This document shows, one piece after another, positions 3,200-47,144 of a stretch of DNA of 64,000 bases; the stretch's first letter is position 1, and each line of letters opens with the position of its first letter. The notes under the pieces are model-generated. The model ran no database searches and was not told the DNA's origin. It was given only the letters and a program-made list of their open reading frames with translations. The DNA is from Raillietiella orientalis (taxonomy: Eukaryota), in NCBI GenBank assembly GCA_036172245.1, contig JAYWIR010000028.1, positions 62,001 to 126,000 of the forward strand, written 5' to 3'. Both the position numbers and the translations under genes were made by a program.

Positions 3200-4510
3200 A
3201 TGAGTTCAGTTTGGAAAAGATTGCAACGTGTAAATAAAAGAGCAGCCAAATTTGCGTTTACTGCCTCATATAATGAACTCATCTTGGAATGCAATTCTAA
3301 ATGGTAAGGATTTCTTTGAATAGCAAGTGAAGAATAAATTGGAAGCCTGTTTCGTCCTTGTAAAGCGTAAACTTATTAATTTTTATATAAATTCCACACT
3401 AACTTTATGTAAGTGTGTGTAGCTCTTCCTGTTTCTTGTTAGAAGCATTTAACTGTATAAATAATTGGCAACAAAGTTGAATGGAATTGATTGATTGCAT
3501 GAATTGTTACAGAAAGTTATTTTGCAGGACGCCAAAGCAGATATGTATAGTTTGGACCAGAAGGAATAGGAGAATTGTATCCAGTTGTCATGAGTGGGAA
3601 CCCACCATTAAAAATCCTTATAGAGGTTTGATTGTGTGGGCCACTCCTGAAAACAAAGAAATTACAGTGACTTTATTTCGAGACCCAAGAAACCAAGAAT
3701 TTGAAGATAAAGAATGGACATTCGTGATTGAAGAAGAAAGTATCTGAACATTACATTCTGTTGTTTCACTAACTTAATTTGATTGTGGCAAATGTTTTCA
3801 GTCATTTTTTTAACAAGGGATTCACTTTTTAGATTCTTCCAAATTCAAAATCCCGGAAGATAGCCATAGGTAACATTAATATGAAGCTTTATGCATCCAT
3901 GATTCCAGCACAACATGATATCAGATTGAATCTCAAACCAGTCTTGAAGCATTGTGTATGTGCACAATTTCAGTTAACGTTATCATGCATTTTCATCAGA
4001 GAAGGCAAAGCAACGTATGTTGAACTGCTTGTATATCTCCTTGTGTATTTTGAAAAAAGTTTGCGTATCAAAGTGCGATATCTGCAATGTGGTTGATTGT
4101 CTCTATTTCAGGGAATCATGTATTACTCAAGTCAGACCTCTTGTTTGTTGTTTTCGGTAAACTCAAAAATTGCATGATTAGTGTGACATGTTAACTGCTT
4201 ATTTTCTAAATAGTTTATGTGTTTTGTGTGGATGTAATATCCTGTTTTCAGCCTTCTGCATATGCATAACATTGTGTGAATTACTGTTTGCAATAATAAT
4301 TCCCTACATGCATTGTTTCTTGCAGTGAGCCAAATGAGATACTGCTAAAACATTAACAACATACAAAGTTTGTGATGGATGTTGACGGTTAACTAGCTTT
4401 TAATTTTAGGGATGAGGATATGATATCACTTGCCAGTTTGATGAGCATGAATAATCCTGATGATGTTTCCGATGTGGCACAGCTGAAAGATTTTGAAGAG
4501 GAAGAAGAAG
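3200..4510 (+). other. EHBP1: NT-type C2 domain-coding exons 1-4 of EHBP1
   Basis: Translation [88 protein letters not shown] matches the EHBP1 N-terminal C2 domain. Confidence 0.93.
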
Positions 4511-29899: not shown

Positions 29900-31451
29900 C
29901 TACAGCACCTGGAAGCCCTGGTACTTCAAGCCTCCGCTCCTGTCCCCGCACTCGAAGCAGTCCGGGCTCACGGGGTTGCCTGGCGCCAGCGCCGGCCGCG
30001 CCAAGTTGGGGCTGAGCATGGTGGAGGCCGTGAGTCCTTGGGGGCCGTGCGCCATCTGCATGCAGCTGATCTGCTGCAAGGGAAAGAGAGAGGGACGACC
30101 AGGTCGAGGAAAGGGCCGACAGCGCGCGAGGGCGGTGGCAGCGGCGGAGCCACGCGCGCGCGCCAACACCTACCGACTGGCTGAGCTGCGGGTGCGCCGC
30201 GGCGGCGGCGGCCGTGCAGGCGAGATACTCCACGCCCTGGTAGTAGGCGGCGGGGCCGTAGTTGGCGCCATAGGTGGGCTGGGAGGGGCTGATGGGGTAG
30301 GCGTTCCTCTCGAAGCCGTTGCCCTGCAGCAGCTCCGGCACGCCCACTAGCGGGGAGGGGTGCCATAGGGGTCCGAACGGGCTGCCGCCGGGGGGCGTCG
30401 CGGCGGGGTGGTGATGGTGGTGGTGGTGGTGATGGTGGTGACCGGGGCTGCTTGCAGGCGCCGACGCCCCTGCGAACGACGCACCACCGCCACCAACGCC
30501 GCCGGGGGACTTGTAGTGGTGTTGGTGGTGCTGGTGGGCGTCCTCGGCGACAGGGGAGGGCGGCGCTGAGTCCGGGCTTTCCGCATGGACGGACGACGAG
30601 GACGACTTGGCCTTTTTGGCCTTGGGCGGCGGGCACTTGGCCGCGGCGGCCCTCGGGCCCGCCGCCGCCGCGGGCTGGTGCTTCTGGTGCTGGCGGCACT
30701 TGGCCCTGCGGTTCTTGAACCACACCTTGAACCGGGACTGTGAAAGGGGGGCCGCCGGGCGGAGAAGGGACAGACAGACCTGCACCCGGGACTCGGGCAG
30801 GTTGATCTTCAGGGCGACCTCCTCCCGCATGAAGATGTCCGGGTACCGCGTCTTCAGGAATAGGGACTCGAGGATGTCCAGCTGCGCCCTGGTGAAGGTC
30901 GTCCGCTCGCGGCGCTGCTTGCGGTTGGCACCTGCAACCCCAGGCGCCAGTGAGCGTCTGCGTCCACGGGCTCTCGCGTACCCCCCGGCCCCCCTGGGGC
31001 GCGGGCACAGAGAGCGAGCCCGCGCCCCAGGGTCCGCCCCTCGGGCGCGAGGTCTCTCTCTCTCTCGCAGCTCTCAACCGTCCGATTCCTCCCTGGAAGG
31101 AGGGGAGTGCCCCTCAGGGCAAAGCGCACCGGGAGACCCCCTGCTGGGGGGCAGGGTGCTCGGAGGGGTGGGTGGGGGTGTGGACCCGGCGGGGATGCAC
31201 GAGAAGGGAAGTAGTGGGCGACTCGGCTCCGTCCGCTCCCGACCGGGGACGTCTCCGTCGGGGGGAGGGATGGGACGCGCGCACGTCCTGGGGTGTCCCC
31301 CCCCCCCCAACCTACTTTGCAGGGCGTTGGGGTACTGCAGACTACCGTGGAGGGGCTCCATGGCTATGTTCAGCCCGTTGATCCCGTACTGGGGGTGCTT
31401 GAAGTACGAAAGGGCGGGACCGGGCGCTGAAGCAGAGCATGCCGACGGGAA
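29900..31451 (-). CDS. otx: Otx/orthodenticle-class K50 homeobox gene, copy A (5' end unresolved)
   Basis: Exons (minus): 31451-31316, 30931-30780, 30725-30174, 30073-29900; phases 0/1/0/0 are consistent. Homeodomain [61 protein letters not shown]-terminal [21 protein letters not shown] motif, poly-His, WSP-like PLWHPSP, and C-terminal [22 protein letters not shown] Otx tail. Confidence 0.95.
30726..30779 (-). other. 54-nt phase-0 intron in homeodomain helix 3 of Otx copy A
   Basis: GTCTGTCTG...GGTTCAAG between RVQ and VWFKNRR, the usual intron position in paired-like homeoboxes. Confidence 0.9.
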
Positions 31452-34400
31452 CTGAGGGAACGCCAGGATGAACGGACGACACTGGAAGAGAGAAAACTGG
31501 GATGCTTCCTTCCCCCGTGGGCCGCAAGAGGGCGACCCGCCTCCCACCTCTTTCTCCGATCCCCCGCTGCTCCTCCTCTCCCCCTCTGGCAGAGCGAGGG
31601 ACGCGCGGATACGAGAAAGACGGAAGGGACGGAGCAGGGGTGGAAAGGGTACTCTCCTTCCCCCCTCCTCCCCCCGTCCCGGGAGAACCATCCCTCTCAC
31701 CACTCTTCCTTCCCCCCCTGCGCGGTTTTCAGACAGGCCAAAAGGGGCAGCGGGACGGTAAGGGACGGCGCGGATTTTTTCACCTCCTTCGCCCCAAAGG
31801 AGCACGCGCAACGAAAAGACGGGAGGGAGGCCCCTGTCCTCCGGAACGGCCCTCCGGCTGGGTCCCTCGGGAGCGGCCCTCGAGGTGGAAAGGGCGGAGC
31901 TCGGGAAAGAGGTGTGAGGATAGATCCTCTCCCTTCCCCCCTCCCCCCCCATGCTCCTTTCCTACCCCCCGTCTCACCTGGTATTCGTCGCTAGGCGACC
32001 AGTTCGCGGACAACCCCGCTTCGGCTCGCTGCCGGGATGCGATCTGCCCTCCGCAGCCTTCCCGCAGCGGCGCGCGGCCGCGGCGGGAAGGCCTGGCTGC
32101 AGGCCCCGCCCCTCGGACGCTGCGGCGGTCGGACGTCGTCTCCAGGCCCCGCCCCGCTCCGCAGCGGCGGAGCGTCGGGGCGCGCCCTCTGGCCGGCGGG
32201 GAGGTGTCGGCACGGCCGGTCGACGCCGGCGGTTCGCGGACGCACGCGCCCACCGCCTCTGCCGGGCGACTCTCCGCCCGCTCGCGCGGGCGCGCGCGCC
32301 GTTCGCTCGCGGCTTTTTCCTCCCTTCGGCAACGGCGGCTGCAGCCGCGCTCGCTCTCAGCACGCTCCGAGGCGGCGGCCGCCGCAGCCTGACCGGGGAG
32401 GGGAGGGGAGGGGAAGAAAGGGTGGGGGGGAGGGTAGTCTCCGCCCCTCCTTCCCCCTCTCCTCCCCCGCGAGCGAGACCCTCCAGAAGGGGCGTCGGTG
32501 TACCGCCCCGTCTCGGCGCCATCCGAGGGAGGGCGGCCAGCGCGGTCCCTACGCGCTGCGGGGGACGGACGGCCCCGTGGTCGATCCGCAACCCTCCGTT
32601 TCTCGAAGGGTGTGGAGGAAGCTTTGTAGCCTCGGCTTCGGGAGGGGAACGGTGGGGGTAGACGGGTAGGGGCGGCCCACCTTCGCATGCCTGTCCCTTC
32701 CGGAGGATTCGGAGCGGGATGGGAGCCTCCCCTCCCCCTCGTAACCTGCTTCACGAGCGCGGCGGCCCGTCCCTCCAGGAAGGAAGGAAGGGCGGGGGGC
32801 GGAAGGGGTTGGGCGGGGAGGAGGCGAGCGCAAGGGAAACGGGGACGATGGGGGAGGGGGGGGGAGGGCAATTTGCGGCGCCTCCTCTGCGCCCCACACA
32901 AAGGGCGCGCGGATCGCCGCGCGGCGCATGCAAATCGCCGGGGATCCATCACGAGATAATCCGGATTTGCTCCTCCCGCGGTGATGGATCGCGTTGACCG
33001 CTCTCTCCCGGCGGGCGTGGATGCTGCTGCAGCCGCTGCAGCCGCTGCTGGTGGTGGTGTGGTCGCACCCCCTCCCCAACCTCTCCCTTTTCCTGCCTGC
33101 CTGGAGAGGGGGCCGGAGAGGGAAGAGGTGGGAAGGTCCTTCGCATCTCCTGTGCCCGAGGAGGGCCGCGCAGCGGGAAGGGGGGGGGGGGGAGGGCGCG
33201 CTCTCCTGTCGGCCTTCCCCTTCTCCCCCGCCCCCCTCCCTCTTTCCCGGCGCAGGCGAGGGGTGCGCGCGCGCGCGCCTGCTCTCTCCCCGGGCAGCCG
33301 AGATAAATCTTCCCCGCGGAGCCGCCGTAAACTCCCGGGGCGGGCGGGCGTTCCAGGAAGACGTGCCGAGGAGATGCGTGAGAGGAAGATTTAGTGCGCT
33401 AAGAGGATTACGGCGCTTCCCCCCCCCCTCCTCTTCCCCCCCCCCCTCCCTCCCTCCCTCTCGCCCTCCGCCGGGCCATTCGACGTGTCACGTTCCGGGC
33501 CATAAACCGGGATATCTGATGGCGCAAAAAAAGGAAAAAAAAAAGAAAGGAGGAAAAAAGGAGGAAGGGAGAGCGAGGGAAGGGAGGGAGTTTGGTCCAG
33601 CCACCTCCGAGGGGGGAGGAGGCGGAGAGCGCCGTGGTCGCTGCCGCAGAGGGACAGGCGGACAGGCCCCTCGGAGGAAGGGGGGGGGGGGAGGGAAGGA
33701 GGGGCAGGTGCTGCGCTGGCGCTGCTCTCGGAGGCCGGTCGCGCGCGGCCCCTCCGCCGGCGGCCACGGCACGGAGGGCGCGCGCCGCGCGCGGCCCTGG
33801 AGGGTCGCGGCGGCGATGGCCGCTGCCGCCGCCGCCGCGGCCGTCGTCGGATCATCCGGCGGAGATCGGCGAGATGATAATTAGGGGGTTTTTGCTCCTC
33901 CGGAGCCAGCAATCCCTTAAGCGGCTTGAGAGAACAAAACGGCGGAGCCGCTCTTTCACGCCGGCACCTCCTTCCCGCGCGGGCCCCGGGATCCGCGGGC
34001 GTATAAATGGGGCACCGCCTCCCGCGCCCGCGTCAGTTCGATCTGCCATGTGGCCGGTGAGCTGCCCCGCACCCTCTTCTTCCCCCCCCCCCCCCCCTCT
34101 CCCCGGGGAGGGCGAAGCTCCGGGCTTCGGGGCACATCGCGCCGGGTGGAGGAAGGCGGCGGGAGTAGGGGGAGGCAGGGTAAGGGGAGGGGGAATCGCT
34201 GCTGGTGCTGCTGCTGCCGCCGAGGCGGCGGCGGCGGCGGCGGCGGCGAGGGCCCTGCATAGGGGGGATGCATGGGGGGGCGCGGGCGGACTGGAGCAGG
34301 AGGAGGAGCAGGGTCATGCAGCGACGACGACCACCTGGAGGGAGATGCGTCCCATCGCCGGCGGCGGCAACAGTAAGGATCGGTTTCTTCTCCGGGGACG

Positions 34401-37400
34401 GCCCACACCCACCCTCACCCCACCCATGCGGCCTCGGGACGCGTCCCGCCTTCCTCGCAGGAGTCCAGGCGCTCTAGCGCGACTCGCGTTCCCCTCCCTC
34501 CGCCCCCTCCGTTTCGCTCTCCATGGAAACGCCTCGTTCCCCCGTCTCCGAGCAAATATTGTGACAACGAGCGCCCGTTCCCGGGAGGCGCGCGCTGTTT
34601 GCTTTGCCATTACCCGCCTCGTCCTGCCCCTGGGGAGGGAGTCGGCAGTCCCTTCTCGGGGGCGAGCCCGCCGGGATAGACCGTGGAGGACAGGCCATCC
34701 CGCGCCGCCTCGGTTCCCGCCGCCTCGTCATTTATTCATGGCCCCGCGCCCTCCTCCGTCTGCTCGCCTCAGGCCCGAGTGGCAGGGTGGGCCGCCGACG
34801 CGGCGGCGGCCCACCCGCTCCCAGGGGGCGCGGCGGCCCTGCCCGCCACGTCCCATCACGAGAAAGCTGGTCCTCCCGGGACTCGGGGAGAGCCCCCTCC
34901 GGGCCCCTCACTAATCCCGCCGCTCCTCCAGGGAACGAGAGGGGCGGGGCTTCCCTCTCGTTCCGTGGGGACGAACGCGGGCAGGGAGGCGCTCCCGCCG
35001 CCGGCCGGAGGGGATGCGACGCCGCGCGGGACGATCCCCCTTTCGCCACTCCGTCCTCGGACCCGAAGACGCGCGCCCTCGGAGGCCCCGTGCCGTGGGG
35101 CCCACCGTGTCCTCCCCCTCCCTCGGGAGACAGGAGGGAAGGGCGGGTTCCCCGCCTCTCCCGGCGTCTCTCCGCCGCCGGCTCGAAGGGGAGGGGACGG
35201 CAGGACGAAGGGATGAGTGAGGACGCGCCCGCGGGTAGGGAGAGCGTCCGAACTCCGGGCCCCCGCGGGAATCCCTCCCTTCGGGAGCAGTAAGGCTGTT
35301 TACCGTGACGGCGCTACAATGAGAGATCCGGGCGCTGGCGACGGGAGGGTCGGGAGGAAGGGGGGCGAGGGGAGGGGAGGGGTGGGGGGGGGGGAAGGCG
35401 GAAAGAGGGGAGGGGAGGGGGAGGTCTCGTTTTTGATTCTCGTGATCGTCGCGCCCGAGTTCCTTTGCCCAACCTTAATCCCACCTCAATGGGGACCGGG
35501 CCGGGGGGAAGAATGCGGAGCGCGACGCGGTGATCGGTTTAACGGGATCAGAAACTGGGCGGGCAGGGGCGCCCACACCTGCCGAGGGAGGTAGCGGCAC
35601 CGGCGGGCGCAGCCGGGAGGAGCGGTGGCCGAGGCTCGAAGTGACACGGAGAGGCAGCCCGCGCGCCCACGACCGGCGCACGGAGGCGTGCGTTCAGCCC
35701 GCGGCGGCGGGCTTTCCCCTCCCGTGGGATACGATGCGGCTCCCGGGGACAATGGAGTGACGCGGGGCCCCTTTGTCCCCATCGGTGCGCGCCTCTCGCT
35801 CAGGAAGGGGAATGGGGGGGAGGAGGAAGAGGAAGGGACGTCCGAATGGGACTCTCCGCGTCCAATGGCCGTCCAATGGTCCCTCGAAGGGGGACGGGCA
35901 GCGGTGTCTCCCGGCACGCAACAGAGTGCCGGGAGACGCGCTCTCCTTTTGCTTCCCCCTTTGCCACCCCCTTCCCGGGGCGCCCGCCCTGCCCTCCACG
36001 CGCCCCGTCACCCGGGGCAACGCGGTGTCCTGCATCCCAGGTGGAGGAGACTCCGAACCTACGCTTCGCTCGAGCAGGGAGAGCGCTGGCGAGGCTCGAA
36101 CGGCGCTGCCCACATCTTCCTCCCCTCCCTCCCCTTCCTTCTCCTTTTCCTCGCTTTCCGGGCAGCGCGAAGCTCCTTCCTTGCCTCCTTGCGTGCTGCC
36201 TCCTCTACGAGCGAGGATCCTCCCGAGAGTGGGGGAGCGCCCGGTGTCGTCTCCCAGTAGAAACCCCTTGTCGGCCATCGCCTCACTCTCCCGTCGCGCC
36301 ACCCTCCACCGGTTGCTCGCGAAACGGGCAGGAACGGGAGGGGGAAAGAAAACGGCGGCGGCAGCAGCAAGGGGCGGCATTCCACTCACCGCCACCGCGC
36401 CCATGGGATGGGGCCACCTAGCAAGCCTCTCTCCGGAACCCGCGCGCGCGCACGGGCGGTCCTGCCGGGCCTCTCCGTTCCCGGCGGGAGCATCGATGCT
36501 GATCCGCGTTACCGCTTGCCGTGCGTAGCAGGCACGAGCCTCCCCCCCTTGAGGGGGGGGGGGGAGGGAGAGGGGACATCCTAGCGACCTCCCTCTGTGT
36601 CACGGAAGCGCCCCGTCAGGCGATGGTTGGGGAAGGGGGCGCGCCTCTTCCGGGATCCGCCCCCGGAGGTCCTGGAAAAGGAGGAGGAGGCACTGTGAAA
36701 GCCGTACCCGTCGAACGCCTCTTCCCAAAAGGGCGAGCCCGCCAGGAGCGGCGTCTCCCGACAGCCTGGTCGGCCGTGGGAGCGCGGAGGAGGAGCGACG
36801 TCCCGCTCGGCGGCATGCGGGATCGATAAGGGAGGGAGGGAGAGAAGCTCCCGCCCGTCGGCACGGAAGCCGTTGGCGCCCACAAAAGTTCCTTTCCCCC
36901 TCGGGAACGCCCCTCGCCTGGAAAGGGTGGCTTGCAAAGGGAGTGGCATCGCGGGGCGGACGGCGGCTGAGCCCGAAGGTCGCGCGCGGGCGGATCCAGG
37001 AAAGGGGGCGCGGCTGACCCGGCCCCCATCCTGGGAGGCGGCGCCTCGGGCTGCATACGGATAGTCCGGGGGACGCAGCGAGGCCACCGGGGAACCTCGC
37101 TCGATTAACCCGAGGAGTCCTGGGGACAATGGGGGCTCCTCCCTGGAAGTAATGGGATGATTGGCGGGATCGCGGGCCGGCCACAAAGGGGAGAAAGGAG
37201 GAAGGGCGGAGGAGGGAGAGGACCGCCGCCCCCGGAGAACGCTCGCGGCGTCTCTCCTCCTCCGTCTTCCGGGACAGACCGCGACCACTCGCGGACGTGC
37301 GGCCTGCACCACCTCGGTGGCGGGAGGGATCTCTGGCGTTTCCACGTCCCTCTTCTTCCTACTCTTCCCGTCTCCGGGAGGAAAGGCCGCTGCCATGCTG

Positions 37401-40400
37401 AAGATACCGTGCGCGCGTGCGTGCGACGAAGGTCATCGGGGTCACGAGCCCGGTTCCGTGTCCCCAGTGAGGGGGTAGGCTAGCCGGGCGGTCATCCGCC
37501 CCATCCCGTGACTGTGCCTCGCAGTCCCGGAAGCTGCTCTGGAGAAGGGTTCAAAGTCTGGAACGGGACGCGGGATGCCCGCATCCCGTAGGCGCGCGTT
37601 AGCTCCTTGGGCGCCGAGCCTCACCACTCTCCCGCGCCAAAGGCGAGCGGATGGAGGGCGCGCCTTCCTCGGTGCTGGCTCGCTCGTTGCAGAATAGGGC
37701 GGCGCGTTTACCAGGCGACGGGAGGATTGAGGCAGTGCTGTGCCCCCGAGACCCTTAAACTCCACCGGTAGAGGAAAAGGCAGGCCCGTCGTCACCCCCA
37801 CGCCTGACCGCTAGAGGCGGTCAGTCATCTCGCGACCAGCGGTAGCGGCAAATTGCCTTTTCCTTGGAGACTCGCGGCTTCGGACCGTCTCTCGGAAACG
37901 GTACGACTCCGCCCTGCATCTCAGAGCGGGATCGGAAGCAGCGGCAGCTCGGTCAAGGTGGCGCCAGGCTCTCCCCTCCACCCCCGACTCAGAGCATTCT
38001 AGCCGGTCAGGGGAACGGGAAGGAAGGAGCTGCCGAGTGCCACGGTGGAGCTCACCGGCCCGGGGCGGCAGCCGTCCCGCTCCGGGGAAGGGGACTGAGG
38101 CGTGAGGTCCGCCTGTGGTCACTTGGGCGACGACCTCGAGAACGCTCGCCCTCCCCATCCCGTCCGCTAGGGCAGGGATCGGGTCGCAAAGGGACCCTGG
38201 CGCGCTCTCCTCGCCATCCGAGGGAGCAGCGCCACTGGATGACCTCCCGCTCTCTCCCCTCAGCCCATTCAACCTCAGGGTGGAACGGCGGAGGGAGGGC
38301 GCCCTTCGGGAGCGGCGAGCAAGGGGATCGGTCCAATCATCCCCACCAGAGGGAAGGGAGCCGTGAAGTTCCCCATCCTTATGCGGCGAGGAGGGAAGGG
38401 ACGGCGCGAGTGGGAATGGAGGGTTGGGCGCGCATCTCCCCGCGAGTGGAACATTCAAATCCCCCCACAGGGAAGGCAGTGCCCTACGGGTCGCCACGAG
38501 TTCAGGAGAGAGCACCCCCCTTCATCCTTGAGGACCGACCGACGGAAATGGGGATCAGCAGAGTTCACCGAGGGGGCTGCTCATGCTTCTTCCCCTACGC
38601 GGGAGCGAAGAGAATGACCCGCGACGAGCAGCGGAGCAGACCGACGGGAGCGGAGGGAAGGGGAGAAGGACGGAGCGTCTGGACCGGAGGCTGCATCCTG
38701 GGGGAGTACGGAACAGGGAGAGGAAGATCCAGTTAAGCGTTGCTCCGCGGGACGAGCTTTAGAATGAGCCTCTTCTTCCTCCCCGCTGTGCTCCTCCCTG
38801 GAAGGAGGGAGGGAGAGAGGGGGGAATTCCGGTAGTTCCTGTGGCGGCAACGGTCGTTGGTTCCTCCAGGCGCTCCGTCATTCCGAGCCCTTCCCACGAC
38901 GGCCGCGAAAAGCCGTTCGAAGTGCCGGGAGCCCCGTTCCCGCTGAGGCCCCAGGCGTTTTTCCGCCACTCCTTCTCCCTCCCCCCTTGTTCTTCTCCCC
39001 TTTTTCCTTCCTTGTGGCAGCGGCACGCCGGGGGATGGATGGGGAGGAGGTCCTTTCCCGCGACCCTTCTTCGGGACCCTCTCCGGGAAAGGTCGCTTGC
39101 AATCCTCTGCTGTCCACCTCTTCCCGAAATGGCGAGTTCGCCAGGGGCGGTTGTGAGCGGCGTCTCCTCCCGCCCGCCAGGTCGGCGCCGTGGGAGCGGA
39201 GAGGAAGGCGCATCCCGCCCTTCCAGGATTCATCCGCCTTCCTCGGACGTCGCCCCAAAACCCTCCCGCAGAGCGCGTGCGTGCGCGCCATCGCCACAGG
39301 GAAGTGGGGGGGGGGGGGGGGGCCTCCGCTCTTGCTGCCGTTGTTTGCCGCTCGTTGCCGGGGCGACGGCCGGCGGCGGCGCACTGGCTCTCGGGTCGGG
39401 CGGGCCAGTCGGAGGGAACGACAAAGCCACCCCCGCCCGGACTTCGTGCCGAGACCCGAAGAGCAGCGGATTAACCGGGGGAACAAAAGGGAGGAGGAAC
39501 CGGGAAGCTCCAAGGGAAACGAAATTCCCGCCCCCGCTCCCCCCCCCCCCGCTCCCACCTCCCTCTCTCTCTTTCTCTCTCCTCGCCCGGCCCGAAGCAC
39601 GCAGCCCCGGCCGACCTTTTTCCCCCGACCTCCCCCACCTCCTCCTCCTCCCGGTTCCCTCCTGCCCCCCTTCCTTCCTCCTGCGGTGGCTTCCGTCCCT
39701 AATCGCCGAAGATTAGACCCCTGCGACATAAAGCCCCCTCTCCCCTTTCATCCCCCCGGTCCCCCATCTGCTCTTCCTCCTGGATGCGACGGCGGCGGCG
39801 GCGACGGATCTGGACCATCTTAGCGCTAATCCCGTTCCACCCCGGAGCGGTCCTCATTGAAGATGTTTTTCGCCGGAACCGTTCCCTTGGATTCCCCGCG
39901 CGGCGAATCAGTCACGGCCGAGGGAAGATCAGGGTCGGGTTGCGGAGGCTGCACGGCGGGGAGGGCGAGGAAAGGGGGATGGGGCGGTCAGGAAGAGCAC
40001 TTTTTCCCTTCTGCCCCCTCCCCTTGCCGCCCGTCGTCTCCCCATCCGCGTTGACCCTGGAGAAGCGTCCGACGACCAGGGAAACTAAGGGAAGAGCATC
40101 CCTCCCTCCTCCCCCTGCTTGCGTTGGCGGGGATCGCCCGGGCCCGCCATGTGTAAGCCGAGAGCCCCCCCGCGGCTTCTTCGCGGGCGCTCTCGCACAC
40201 CCCTTTTCCCGAAAGCGGAAGAGGGGGAGAAGGGGGAGAAGAGGGGTGTCCCTCCACCTTCCCTCCGCTCCGGAGATCTCCCCCCGGACGCCCCTCGTTC
40301 ACGTTTCAGGTGTCCTTCTCCTATCATGTTCATCGCCGCCGCCTCGTGCCCTGAGGCGGTGTCTGATCGGTCCAAGGCGCTCGCGCGCGACCTGCTTTGG

Positions 40401-42364
40401 CCCTGGCAGCCTCCGTCCTTCCACGCCCCACCTTTCCCAGCGATGTCCCAGCAGCCCCGCTTTCGTTCCTCTTCCACCGCGCTCCCTGATTGGCCGACAC
40501 CGGGAGACCGACGCCTCTCTCTGGGTCATGCTTTCCGCCTCGCGGCGACCTGGCGCGCGTTCGCGCTTCCTCCCCCCCTCAGGTCGTGCGGCGGCCCACC
40601 CGCGCTTGCGCTCTCTCGCAGGAAGGGAGACGCGCCGCCGCCGCCGCCGCCGCCTGAGCCTCCCAGGAGCGCAGGGAGGTCCCCGGACCAGAGTGGGACG
40701 AAGGATGGAGGGGTGGGGGGACGCGTCTGGTCCCGGAGTTCCGGACGCTTCCTCCGCAGCTTGCTCCTCCTTCGGCGCTGCCCCGGGGCCCCCCTCCGTC
40801 GGGCTGCCGGACTGGACGGCAGTCAGCCTGAGGGGATCGCCGCGGGCGACGCTGCTCTCTCTCTCGGCTGGCCGAGGGTCGCATTCGGGGTGGCGCCGTC
40901 CTCCCCGCACTTCTACAAGAGGGACGGGATGCCCCGCATCATTACAGGATGCTCGGGGTCTCGTAGTCGCGGAGCCACGTCCGAGCCTCGGGGCCTTCCC
41001 TGCCCCCTCTCCTTCCCACGTCCTCTCGGAGAAGGTGGAAGTGAAGTTCTGTGCCCACAACCACGCCCCCGCTTCTTATCCCCGCCTCGAGGCGCTTCAC
41101 GTCTCTCCAGATGACTGCAGAGAGGGACACCTCAGAACTCCTCTCCCTGGCGTTTCGAGGAACGCCTCCCTCCCCTCCCCCATCATCCCAGCCTCCAGGA
41201 ATGCCCATTCTCGTGAGCTCTCTTAAACGGAAGGAGGAGAGGGTGCCAAGTCGAGGAATCCGATAGGAGGTTTGGGCTCCGACCACGTGCGTCGAGGTCA
41301 GAAGCGGACAGGACGACCCCCCCCCTCCCTGGAAGCTCCCCGACGGAAGCTTCTCCCCGTGCTCCAGCCGGTCGAGACGCGACGCCCCGGGGATTACAGC
41401 ATCCTGGGGACGGCCCCCTTTCCGGCGGGCGCCGTCCATCCTCCCCTCCGAGGTGGCACCACCGCGCCCCTTCAGAGGAAGGGGGGGAGCAGCCGTCTCC
41501 CGCCGGAGGGAAAAAGGGCAGCGGCCGGGACTTCCCGCCCAGGTTCCCGGAGCCCCCGGCGGGAGGCTAATCCGCGCCCGCGGTCCTCGCCCTCCCTTCT
41601 CCCGGCTTTCCCTCTGTCACGAGGGGCAGGAAAGGAGGGTGCGTGACCGTTCCTGAGATGGGGAGGCGGCTGGAACGGTCGGCTCTAATCGCAAGCGCCC
41701 ATCGATCCGCTCGGTCACCCGGAGGAGAGGGGGGAGGAGATCGGTGCCCTGTCCCCAGTGGAGGGGCAAGGGAAGGTCTGCCCCCTCCTCCTCCCTGGAA
41801 AGCGCTCTCTCTGGGAGAAAGCGGGGGCATTGAGGGAGCGGAAGGCGTCTCCGAGGTGCTGCCTGGTGCCTCCTCCTCCTCCCCGGGACTTCTGTCTGCG
41901 TCTTCCAGAGCCAGAGGGGAGAAGAAAGAGAAGGGAAAGAGGAGAGGGCGAGGGGCTGATCCGCTGTCCATCCTGACGTGGAGGGCTGCCGAACGCAGTC
42001 CATCCCGGGAAAAGGACCCAGGGTCGTGCATCTCCAAAGCGAACGCGAGAGGGCCGGATGGAGAGAGGGACTCCCTGGCCGCCCGCCACCTCCTCCTATC
42101 CTCGACTCTTTCGTGGACATAAGGGGGATCGCTCCGGGAGGGGAGATTTCCCCCCACCACACTTCCCCCTCCCTCTGACCGCTTCCTGAGCGCTTCTCCA
42201 GGCTGCCCAGGCTCGAAAGGGTAGGGAGGGGCACTCGGCCTTGACTGCTTCTCCTTCTCCCGGGATCTCAGGCCAGCAGGGGCCAGCCCTTTCACGGCCG
42301 CTTTCCTGACATAGCCCCCCTGGCCAGGGCAGCTTTGGGATCCGGCGAGAGTGGCAGGGGAAAT

Positions 42365-42384
42365 GGGGGGGGGGGGGGGGGGGG
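42365..42384. repeat. Poly(G) tract, 20 nt (others: G17 at 25554-25570 and 25802-25818)
   Basis: Read directly. Confidence 0.9.
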
Positions 42385-45300
42385 AGGACGTGCAGGGCCG
42401 GGATGCTCTCCCGCGAGCCCCTCCGACCGGCGAGAGGGACGGCAGCTCTCCTTCCTCCCGGGTGCCCAGTTAGGCGCCGTCGCTCCTCCTCCTCTTTTCT
42501 CCGGCATGGCGGAGGGTGGGGGACCCGCCCCCACCCCCGCCCCATTTCTTTGCGCCCCTGTGTGCATCTCTGCCTCCCAGTGAAGGCAGCGGCGGCAGTG
42601 GGCTCTCCTCCCCTTCTTCTCCCCTTTTTTTCGCTTCCTGCTCCTCCCCCTCCCCTTCCTTTTTTCGGGATGAAAGGACTTCCTCTTTTCTCTCTCCCAC
42701 CTTCTTTTTCCAGTCTTCCTTTTTTTCCCCGCCCCCTCCTCCTCTTCCTTCCTTCCTTCCTTCCTCCCCTTTGCCTATCCTTTTCTTCCCCCCCCCCCTC
42801 CTCCAGTCCTCCCACCCGCCCATCCCACCCCCCTCTCCCAGCTGGTCTCCCCCATCCCCACTTCCCTCGGCGTCTCTCTATTTACGTCCTCCTTTTCTTC
42901 TCCTGCCGCTTCCTCCTTTTTTTTTTTTCCCCCCCCCCTCCTCCCCCTTCCTTCCGCTCTCCTTTTTTCTACCTCCTCCTTAATGCTTCTCGGGATGCGA
43001 CCTGGGCAGGGGAGCACGAAATTTACTGCGCTCTCCTGGCGGGACGGGAAGACGTGGGAGGCGCGGTGGTGTGGGAAAAAAAAAAGGAGGGGGGGGAGGA
43101 AGGAAAATCAAAGAGAGGGGCGGGAGAGGAGGGGGGAGGGGAGAAGGGGAAAAAAAAAAAAAAACAGACAAGGAGGGCGGAGAAAGACGGAGACAATAGT
43201 CCCGACGGTGTGCCGATGGAGAAGAGGCGAAAAGGGGGATAGCCGCCGCCGCTGCCCCCCCCATCACCCCTAGACGCCTCCGCCGGCTTGAAACCCTCCC
43301 CCCTCAGCGGACAGACACCCGTGGCGACCGCGGCGAGGCGTGCGCGCGCGCGCGCATGGACTTCCACCGCCCCCGGCCTTTGTTCAGGGGGACCTCGCTG
43401 AGCCGGAAGCGACCTGCTTGACCGCAGCGCGTCCATAAATCTTCCCTATTCTCGAGGGGGGAGGGGGGGGGGGAGGGAGGAGGAAGAAGAAGAAGAAGAA
43501 GAAAAAAAACGTTCCTTCCTCCTCCCCCCCTTCTCCTTGGCCGGCCCTCGCTGCCGTCCTCTCCCCTAATGATCCCCCCCGCTCGCTGACGGGACGACCG
43601 TGAAATTGCTATCGCGGGATCGGCAGGGCGCACCTGCGAGATTCCTCCTGCTGAGGCGGCGGGGGCGGAGGAAGGCAGGGGGGAAGGGGGGGGGGGGCAT
43701 TGCGCCCGCGTTGAGCGCGTCGCGGTCTCCAATGGCGGCGCAGATCGGCGTTGACAGGCCGCTCGCTCACTCGGCCGACGGACTGCTGCCGCCGCCTGAA
43801 GCGCTCCGCGTCACCTTCCGTGACCTCCGCGCGGAGCCGCTGCCGCATCCTTTGCTCGTTCCCTGACCCTGCGCCGCGCTTCCTTCCTTCCTTCCTTCCT
43901 TCCTTCCTCGCCCTCTTTTCTCCCCCCCCCTCCTTGCTTTTCGTTGGCCCTTCGTCCCGTCCCGTTCTCGCGTCCCTCGCGGGGTGGGCGGAACGGAAGG
44001 AGCGGCCCCGGAGAGGGACGAGCCCGCCACCAGCCCCGTGTTTGCTGAGCGGATCAGGCCCTCCGAGCGCGCGCCCGATCGCCCCCTCCCTCCCTCGTTC
44101 CTCCCCCGCCCTCGAGCGTGTCAACACGCTGACTTTTCCGTGAGGGGGCTCTCCCGCCCTCGCGAACGGAGCCCCTCTCCCCGTTTATGGCTCCCCCATT
44201 ACGGCGGCGTGCCGCCCTGCGCTCCCCCTGTTCTTCCCTCCGCTAATCCCAACGGGAGCCCGGCTCCCCGGTGGCGATGATTAAGTGAGCAGCACCGAGA
44301 CGGGAGAAGGGGGAGGAGCAAGGACGCCTCCCTCGTCGTCGGCGGGCAGCGCCGCGCGCTGGCGAAAGGGCGCGTCCCGGACGGGAAAGTCATCCCCCTC
44401 CCTGGCGGAGAACGCCTCCAGGCAGCGCGCGCAAACGCTCGATGGGGCACCTCGAAAGGGGAGGCGCGGGAGGGAGGGGGAAGCGTCTTGCTCGCCACCT
44501 CGTATCTCCTTGGAAACCTCCCTTTTCCCCCTCCCGTCTTTCCGAATTCCCTCTCGGGATCCCCAACTGCCTGAGGAGGGAACCTGGAGCGACACTGCAC
44601 GCGCACGAAACCCCCCCTTCCCGGACTAGCCAACTCCGTTGCCGTGGATACGCACGACCGCATGCACCTGGGCCGGATTGTCCTCCTCCAGTGGGCGGGA
44701 GAAGGGCAGACTCCGGAGAGCAGGTCTCCCCTCATCCTCCCTCCGGAGCACCAAGGAGGCGCGTGCGGCGGGAAAGGGCGAGGCGATCGCTTTCAACGTC
44801 GAATCCTTCGGACCCCGCAGTACAACGTGATTAGCCAAGGCACGAGGGACGTGCTACCCCTCTCCCTCTCGTGCCCGGGCGAACGAGGGGAGCGGCACCC
44901 CGCGCGGGATGTGCCACGCCCGCCTGCGGTCTCCCCGGATGCGGGGCTGAAACACCGTGCGTAGCTCTCGCAGCCCGGGTCGACACTTCCTGCAAGCGTG
45001 TAGAGAGGGAGCGCTGGCTACGGGCGATCTGCGCCACGACAACCTCGGTGCCTCCTTCTTCGGGAGTGGGCGGACGCGCACCCCGAGAGCTCCGGCGGCG
45101 ACCGTGGCCGCCAGGAAAGCCAGAGCACCAGGAGCGTAGAGGGAGAGGGGGGCGAACCCGGCGGCGCAACAGCGGGAGGACGGCGGTGGCAGCGACGGAC
45201 TCCTCGCCGACGCGCGGACGCCCAGCCTGTCAGTCGTCTAGGCAACCCCCTGATGTCTTCCCTCCCGTCCGGAATGTGCCTGCCGACAGTGCCTCGCTAA

Positions 45301-45842
45301 TTGCCATGACTCACCTCTGGGGATCCACCGCCGCCGCCGCCGCCGCCGCCGCCACCCCTTTTCTTTCTCCCCCCTTCGCAGTGGGAATCCACAGTGGGTG
45401 CGTCGCGTCGGTGGCGATGTGTCTGTTCGGCGACGGGCGGACTCCCGGAGACGGCGTCGTGGAGACGTCCCTGAACGCGACCCTCCTCCTCCTCCCTTCC
45501 CCTCTCGTTCCCAGGAAGTGGACGGCGGCGGCGGTTGCGACGCATTGCTTTGCGGCGAGCGCCGGCCAATCATTCGCGAGCAGGGAGGCTTCTGTTGCTC
45601 GGAAACGCTCGTTCTCGCGAACGGGATGAGTCCTCGGCGCTGGTCCGCCGTTCCTCCTTCCTTCCTGCTTCCCTCCCTCCCTCCCCACTCTGCGCGGGCG
45701 CCTGCCGCGTTCCGCCGGGGAAGCACGCGAGGAGGAGAAGGAAGAGGAGGAGCGCGGTGGTCTCTTCCGGCAGTCGCTAAGAAAGTTCTGGAAAAAAAGA
45801 AAAAAGACGTCCATTCCTGGAAACGGCTCCACTTTTTTCCGT

Positions 45843-45848
45843 TTTATT
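45843..45848 (-). promoter_or_regulatory. Candidate polyadenylation signal of Otx copy B
   Basis: AATAAA on the minus strand about 155 nt past the stop codon. Confidence 0.6.
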
Positions 45849-46003
45849 GATGGCGTCATGGCCTTCCTCGAACCGCTTCCGATCGCCGCGGGCGGCGCTG
45901 CCGTCCTCGTCTGGCCGAGAGGACCGAGCCGTGTTCGGGGTGATGGTGGGTGGGGTACCGTCGTCCTTCCCGCTCCTCGACAAGAGAAACGGGACGCCAC
46001 ACC

Positions 46004-46605
46004 CTACAGGATGTTCGGGTACCTTTCCGGGTACTCGTAGTATTCGGGGGCTACGGGATACGCTGCCGGGTGCCGCGCGAAGGGCTGAACCGCTTGAGGC
46101 GCCCCGTAGAGGCCGCCTCCCACCTGCTGGAAGGCGGGCACCGCCGCTCCGTACTGGGGGTGGAGAGCCGCTGCCTGCTGGTGGGAAGGGAAGTACTGCA
46201 CGTTCACGCCGCCGTAGAAGGGCGAGGGAGGGGTCCCGTATCCCGGGTAGGGGCTCGCAGGAGACGAGAGCTTGCACGCGTGGTAGACCCCCTGGATGCC
46301 GCCGCTGTTGTTTGTCGCCACGTAGAGCGGGGACGCCTCGCCGGCGCCGGGGAAAGCGGAGCTCCACACGGGGGGTGAGTAGGGGCAGGGCAGCAACTCC
46401 GGAGTCGCGCCGGCGGGCGCGGTGGTGGCAGCCAGCGAGGAGGACGCCGTCGAGGACGGGGTCGAACAGGTCGACGGCGACGCGGACTCCGGGGGCGACC
46501 TGTAGCTGGAAGGCAACTTGTCCGCCACTGCTTTGGCGGGCAGGTCCGCGCCGGTGCTCTTTTTGCTCTCTTTCTCTTCTGGCTGTTGTTGGTGGTGGTG
46601 GTCGC

Positions 46606-46640
<35 letters not shown>

Positions 46641-47144
46641 TGCTGCTTCTGCTGCAGCTGCTGGCGGCACTTGGCCCTGCGGTTCTTGAACCACACCTTG
46701 AACCGGGACTGTGAAAGGGGGGCCGCCGGGCGGAGAAGGGACAGACAGACCTGCACCCGGGACTCGGGCAGGTGTATCTTCAGGGCGACCTCCTCCCGCA
46801 TGAAGATGTCCGGGTACCGCGTCTTCGAAAAGAGGGATTCGAGCGTGTCCAGCTGCGTCCTGGAGAACGTGGTCCTCTCGCGCCTCTGCTTCCTGACCGC
46901 TGAGTTGGCACCCGGGACAGCTGAAAGGTCACCCGGAGTGTAAGGAGGGGCGGTCGAGAACGCGGAGGGGGTGAGGCTGACCTGCTGCGTATCCCGCGTG
47001 CGGGTTGTGGACGGCGGCGTCCACGGCACCCGGGTGGAGCAGCTCCACTCCGGCGTGAGGGTAGTGCGCGGGCTTCAGGTAGCCGATCCCGAACCTCTGG
47101 ATGTGGTGATGCTCGGACGTCTTCAGGTTGCTGGAGTGGTGCAT
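46004..47144 (-). CDS. otx: Otx/orthodenticle-class K50 homeobox gene, copy B (3 coding exons, 341 aa)
   Basis: Exons (minus): 47144-46982 ([27 protein letters not shown]), 61-nt intron ending TTTCAG, 46920-46751, 54-nt intron, 46696-46004. Homeodomain [60 protein letters not shown], then poly-Q, PVWSSA, and end [14 protein letters not shown] further acceptor at 47159-47161 suggests an upstream exon or trans-splice site. Confidence 0.95.
46608..46662 (-). repeat. CAG-rich repeat encoding polyglutamine in Otx copy B
   Basis: Plus strand (tgc)n; translation [19 protein letters not shown] directly after the homeodomain. Confidence 0.9.
46697..46750 (-). other. 54-nt phase-0 intron in homeodomain helix 3 of Otx copy B, identical to that of copy A
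   Basis: Base-for-base match to 30726-30779. Confidence 0.9.

Follow-up and report, generated by a model that had tools for sequence, protein, structure and literature searches.

The window analysed here is a stretch of 64,000 nucleotides from Raillietiella orientalis (contig JAYWIR010000028.1, positions 62,001 to 126,000 of the forward strand), and it holds two diverged Otx/otd homeobox genes that share a near-identical tract, including a whole intron, inside the homeobox. The genes lie 16 kb apart, on the same strand and head-to-tail, on a contig of 2.97 Mb. The assembly comprises 210 Mb in 491 contigs, and own-genome searches recovered these two Otx/otd genes and no others; collapsed or extra Otx copies were considered and set aside on the same searches, which gave two loci only. 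In a tree of RPB2 (36 rows), the source genome was placed among the pancrustaceans (98/96), outside the insect clade. The features under discussion are as follows.

29900..31481, minus strand: conserved otd2-like gene; exons 31316-31481, 30780-30931, 30174-30725, and 29900-30073.
46004..47144, minus strand: diverged Otx gene; exons 46982-47144, 46751-46920, and 46004-46696; open spliced frame, GT-AG introns.
30688..30855, minus strand: homogenised tract in the conserved otd2-like gene, homeodomain codons 22-58 plus intron; 166/168 identity, 1/34 synonymous.
46659..46826, minus strand: homogenised tract in the diverged Otx gene, partner of 30688..30855.
30726..30779, minus strand: homeobox intron of the conserved gene, at Q46/V47; GT donor, AAG acceptor; predicted splicing.
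46697..46750, minus strand: identical 54-nt intron of the diverged gene; predicted splicing.
30803..30804 (partner 46774-46775), minus strand: two-base swap, the sole difference within the tract; silent at I38, plus N39H.
30856..30917, minus strand: homeodomain codons 1-21 (N-terminal arm and helix 1), outside the tract; 7/17 synonymous, 4 amino-acid differences.

Both homeoboxes have OTX2 as their best match among solved structures (E 2.4e-26), K50 is present in both genes, and the named database matches are nearly all Otx, otd, or Crx. The homeobox intron is located between codons 46 and 47 in both, the same position as in the other PRD-class genes of this genome; the exon structures of the two genes differ. 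Spliced at GT-AG introns, the gene at 29900..31481 gives an open frame with the C-terminus KYQGFQVL, and an additional exon upstream is likely. Against an insect Otd2 profile, its parts outside the homeodomain reach 36.8 bits; against a crustacean-type profile, they reach 28.5/20.3/15.2 bits. Judged by its N- and C-terminal parts, it is the conserved, otd2-like copy. The gene at 46004..47144 carries L60, a residue called diagnostic of insect Otd1 in the available text of PMC4084641 and absent from several beetle and ant Otd1 proteins. Its non-homeodomain parts reach at best 8.7 bits to insect Otd1, with high composition bias, and insect Otd1 N-terminal and tail profiles give no signal in it; orthology to insect Otd1 is only suggested by these comparisons.

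Realignment reproduced exactly the match reported in the first-pass annotation of this DNA: 30688-30855 and 46659-46826 are identical at 166/168 nt (offset 15971), the sole mismatches being the adjacent positions 30803-30804, and identity is unbroken over the 115 nt from 30688 to 30802, the 54-nt intron included. The adjoining segment (30856-30924) differs at 16/69 positions, in agreement with the approximate count given there. The statement that the genes are otherwise diverged also held at the DNA level: self-BLAST of the window gave one homologous block between the Otx genes and otherwise simple repeats only, and no further alignable DNA was detected outside the homeobox block in the 4.5-kb gene regions. 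When the 24 mismatches were placed by permutation over the 251-nt block, a run of at least 115 nt arose in 0/200,000 shuffles. No exact tract shared by two distinct places in a set of 89 fetched homeobox loci is longer than that of the Otx pair, the next being 55 and 45 nt, and the start of the intron occurs solely at these two places in the genome, allowing up to 3 mismatches.

Synonymous codons differ at 1/34 in homeodomain codons 22-58 and at 7/17 in codons 1-21 (Fisher p 0.001). The GC content of the Otx locus is 65-72%, and GC at third codon positions (GC3) in the homeodomains of the pair is 0.95-0.98; because GC3 is so extreme, a codon null was built from the same genome with 432 pairs of unrelated high-GC3 homeoboxes (pairs not independent of one another), among which 2777/7770 shared synonymous codons differ (36%). 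A stricter null of 90 homeobox pairs gave 33%, with 3/23 in the lowest single pairs. Compared with the genome null, the exon part of the tract alone has a binomial p of 6e-6, with related pairs treated as independent. Synonymous divergence is saturated in codons 1-21 but not in the tract. The genome null, together with the identity of the intron, rules out codon bias as the source of the tract. At the two-base swap, the derived state is in the diverged gene, N39 being the commonest residue among retrieved Otx proteins.

The identity of the tract extends to silent and intronic sites, has sharp limits, and gives way directly to saturated divergence. From this we conclude that a recent intrachromosomal, non-allelic gene conversion, limited to the homeobox, very probably took place between the anciently duplicated tandem Otx genes; the ectopic conversion proposed in the first-pass annotation is thus supported by the tract statistics, that is, by the synonymous contrast and the intron identity. 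A DNA break in one homeobox would have been repaired from the other homeobox 16 kb away, and the copied segment of some 170 bp would begin at codon 22, cross the short intron, and end at codon 58. Protein constraint and the extreme GC3 may keep the homeoboxes alike enough for recombination, and the tract may end where similarity is lost or where paralogue-specific residues start (codons 21 and 59-60). The template would have been DNA, because a cDNA template would have lost the intron, which was presumably carried along because it is short and lies between conserved exons. The swap may be a mutation after the event or may have escaped repair; since the diverged gene holds the derived swap, the conserved gene is the more likely donor. 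One mutational event in about 34 degenerate codons and 54 intron bases suggests 1-2% neutral divergence and so a recent event.

The Otx proteins retrieved from insects, molluscs, and vertebrates hardly vary in helices 2-3, so that conversion there leaves the protein almost unaltered. At the protein level the copying is probably close to neutral, and it is probably a by-product of protein constraint and not a device that fixes binding specificity. The first-pass suggestion of recent or recurrent conversion homogenising DNA-binding specificity therefore stands in part: recurrence is supported from other lineages (metagenome loci and Hymenoptera proteins), and the role in specificity is weak, helices 2-3 being near-invariant to begin with.

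Within the window, GC content climbs steadily over positions 1-26000 from 36-38% to about 69% toward the Otx pair and then stays at 63-72% to the window end. No other protein-coding gene is evident by eye between the Otx genes (32000-45900), and this interval is rich in short motifs of the TAATCC/GGATTA type, which we take to be the site of K50 homeodomains. A Pfam comparison of twelve other long open frames of the window gave no family match.

In this genome, a few pairs of close duplicates have domain-limited tracts, and the Otx tract belongs among them. The following loci were compared; the names FoxO and Irx are those which we take the domain sequences to indicate.

L190:1489-1662 versus L191:1483-1656, contig C6, inverted: FoxO tract, first forkhead exon and about 14 nt of intron.
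L092:1502-1751 versus L093:1586-1835, contig C12: Irx pair, homeobox comparison.
L067:1511-1769 versus 4073-4332, contig C29: L067 partial duplicate; the copy ends with a stop codon directly behind helix 3.

The two FoxO genes lie 31 kb apart in inverted orientation, and their common tract of 174 bp is 96% identical, unbroken over 86 nt, with 2/47 synonymous differences; a paralogue-specific patch is kept, and the second forkhead exon (L193/L197) is just 76% identical. Across 68 Fox, bHLH, and T-box loci, exact tracts of at least 60 nt were found only in the FoxO pair and in one non-coding repeat. The Irx genes, 22 kb apart, differ at 6/57 synonymous homeobox codons (p 1.6e-5), the silent differences being scattered; judged from these codons, the pair is possibly an older conversion. 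Eleven other homeobox pairs on shared contigs, at least 30 kb apart, show 31-71% synonymous differences. At L067, an lms-like homeobox exon and its short intron are partially duplicated 2.6 kb downstream at 96% identity. For engrailed/invected as an internal control, one engrailed only was found in the genome. Other linked pairs are presumably Dll-, Msx-, Emx-, Lim3-, and apterous-like genes, and what we take to be the abd-A- and Abd-B-like homeodomains of this genome look divergent.

A metagenome scan yielded 63 Otx loci; 55 with the full exon were analysed, and 8 partial or split matches were excluded. No close relative of the source genome was present among them, the lowest synonymous divergence to a window gene being 28%. 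Six insect-type loci form two groups (L102/L104 and L105/L106/L110/L111). Their flanks are alignable within each group only, at about 84-92% over 0.5-2.9 kb; between the groups, colinear alignment is limited to the homeobox exon of 154-161 nt, and the flanks otherwise give short 72-74% patches in varying places and orientations. Synonymous divergence of this exon is 49/366 (13%) between groups, 5/47 and 32/279 (11%) within groups, and 55-65% from the six loci to other Otx loci. Three sites only are fixed between the groups, two of them in codon 21, which is the sole fixed amino-acid difference. Between the metagenome orthologues, silent divergence equals intron divergence, which argues against constraint on the exon at the nucleotide level. 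In L105, identity reaches a few bases farther upstream than in L106/L110/L111.

For insects, 49 named Otd proteins were compared (unnamed proteins and one duplicate species entry excluded). G18 is found in 9/11 Otd2 and 8/9 Otd1 proteins of Hymenoptera and in 0/29 other insect proteins; S9 is found in 7/7 braconid proteins (both paralogues), 1/13 other Hymenoptera, and 1/29 others. The reading that Otd1 and Otd2 of Hymenoptera share lineage-specific residues, consistent with recurrent conversion, is supported by these counts. The proteins P0009, P0067, and P0116 (Culicoides, Bradysia, and Phlebotomus) look Otd2-like; Diptera are inferred to have lost otd2 in the available text of PMC4084641.

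Several points weigh against recent conversion in the Otx pair or its recurrence elsewhere. Sequence evidence for the pair comes from one assembly of one species. The binomial nulls assume independence, and values as low as 13-15% (on 23-26 codons) are seen in individual unrelated pairs. Diagnostic N- and C-terminal exons were not recovered on the metagenome contigs, where the otd1/otd2 labels are given by a few residues and flank alignment, and the insect paralogue labels were assigned from C-terminal tails. About two parallel changes at tolerant positions make up the Hymenoptera pattern; they could be convergent, and unrelated Otx proteins have S9 and G18 as well. The Otx genes, finally, are head-to-tail, and the pairs that serve as precedent are inverted.

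An artefact of assembly or polishing, by which the reads of one homeobox overwrote the other, is unlikely. The pair is known from assembled sequence alone, and the 168-bp Otx and 174-bp FoxO tracts are near short-read length and fall in the most similar parts of the paralogues, where reads would be prone to mis-mapping; however, each Otx gene is flanked by unique sequence on the 2.97-Mb contig and has an intact spliced frame, and a codon-sensible difference survives inside the tract. Overwriting would also erase the paralogue-specific patch of FoxO and the scattered silent differences of Irx, two pairs in which identity is graded, and a like pattern is seen in independent assemblies of another lineage, namely at the insect-type metagenome loci.

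A selected RNA or splicing element, offered as the alternative in the first-pass annotation, is very improbable and gained no support from folding, Rfam, the other Otx introns, or the analysis of the acceptor. Such an element could be, for instance, an alternative acceptor by which helix 3 would gain four residues, or the intron might be retained in frame under regulation. The intron does invite the idea, as it is stop-free and a multiple of three and ends in AAG, a better-looking pyrimidine-CAG sits 12 nt before its end, and 0/21 other Otx introns have an AG within 14 nt of the acceptor. Against this, the intron folds no better than shuffles (z 0.22, 0.34, and 1.37), has 0 Rfam matches, and resembles none of the 21 complete Otx introns (51-5451 nt), 3 of which also have an AAG acceptor; across the 63 metagenome Otx loci, all distant relatives, likeness to it extends over at most 14 nt. 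Its adenosines are at positions 39, 41, 52, and 53 only, and that at position 39 is the more likely branch point. Use of the upstream CAG would leave an intron of 42 nt with no adenosine before position 39, and the shortest introns inferred in this genome are 46 nt (3/22 myosin junctions and two homeobox genes). An alternative acceptor with a four-residue insertion was judged unlikely for this reason, the intron being too short and adenosine-poor, and no retrieved Otx protein has such an insertion in helix 3. Selection on a retained peptide would still permit silent changes.

A recent whole-gene or segmental duplication followed by very rapid divergence outside the tract is the least credible account: a genuine recent partial duplicate of a homeobox exon does exist in this genome (L067), but the silent sites beside the Otx tract, in the same exon, are saturated, which largely refutes it, and no other intron, untranslated region, or flank aligns between the two genes, whose exon structures differ.

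Recent homeobox-confined conversion has a close precedent in Dlxa/Dlxb of Capitella teleta, for which the available text of PMC3199776 describes a tract of about 150 bp. Those genes are likewise linked homeobox paralogues (about 18 kb apart) that have diverged except in the homeobox, where silent sites of the tract are identical and the tract runs into the intron; they differ in being tail-to-tail and sharing 12 nt of the intron, whereas the Otx genes are head-to-tail and share the whole intron, with helix 1 excluded. Ongoing conversion is described for engrailed/invected in passages of PMC6444547, and the concerted evolution of this hexapod pair is treated in PMC3199776 as well. The likeness to the hexapod pair lies in an ancient tandem duplication with a homogenised homeobox and confused orthology, repeated in engrailed/invected; unlike the Otx genes, engrailed/invected belong to another gene class, are tail-to-tail, and are documented in many species, whereas the Otx case consists of one genome and indirect evidence across lineages. 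Capitella eve is mentioned as a possible conversion case in the consulted part of PMC3359188.

For Otx itself, close linkage of two genes, as here, is described for centipede otx-A and otx-B in passages of PMC5654096, and pancrustacean otd1/otd2 resemble our pair in that each genome has two Otx genes, one conserved and one diverged (PMC4084641, as available). The latter source takes homeodomain residues shared within Daphnia and within Parhyale as evidence for independent duplications, and the word 'conversion' is absent from its main text; the available parts of PMC11896711, PMC10726417, and PMC5132259 contain nothing on otd conversion. No report of conversion between otd/Otx paralogues was found in the literature covered (titles, abstract openings, and passages, with most subscription papers and supplements outside). 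The mechanism is established, and the Otx pair is very probably a further case of homeobox-restricted conversion.

A wider reading may be put forward tentatively and as a whole, as possible but not probable. The otd pair of pancrustaceans (perhaps of mandibulates) would descend from one ancient tandem duplication, its homeobox having been repeatedly homogenised in separate lineages; conversion would have created a false appearance of independent duplications, as published for Daphnia, Parhyale, and insects; selection would guard a few paralogue-specific positions, such as codon 21 at the edge of the tract; and Otx, FoxO, and Irx would reflect a general, ongoing conversion of DNA-binding-domain exons between linked duplicates.

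As an example of domain-limited conversion in developmental genes of old descent, the Otx pair is unusually clean and recent, and a whole intron serves in it as a neutral marker. With Otx, FoxO, and Irx tracts in one compact genome, the parts played by distance, orientation, and boundaries could be tested with population data. For experimental work, probes, RNAi, and CRISPR guides placed inside the tract would target both Otx genes. Domain-limited conversion can mislead the Otx family tree, and recurrence in otd genes, which appears to be the case, challenges the inference of independent duplications from shared homeodomain residues (PMC4084641, available text). Should conversion be recurrent in otd, neither homeodomain trees nor shared residues could serve to date or count arthropod otd duplications, and this would affect orthology assignment and the arguments on subfunctionalisation in head and eye development made in the available text of PMC4084641.

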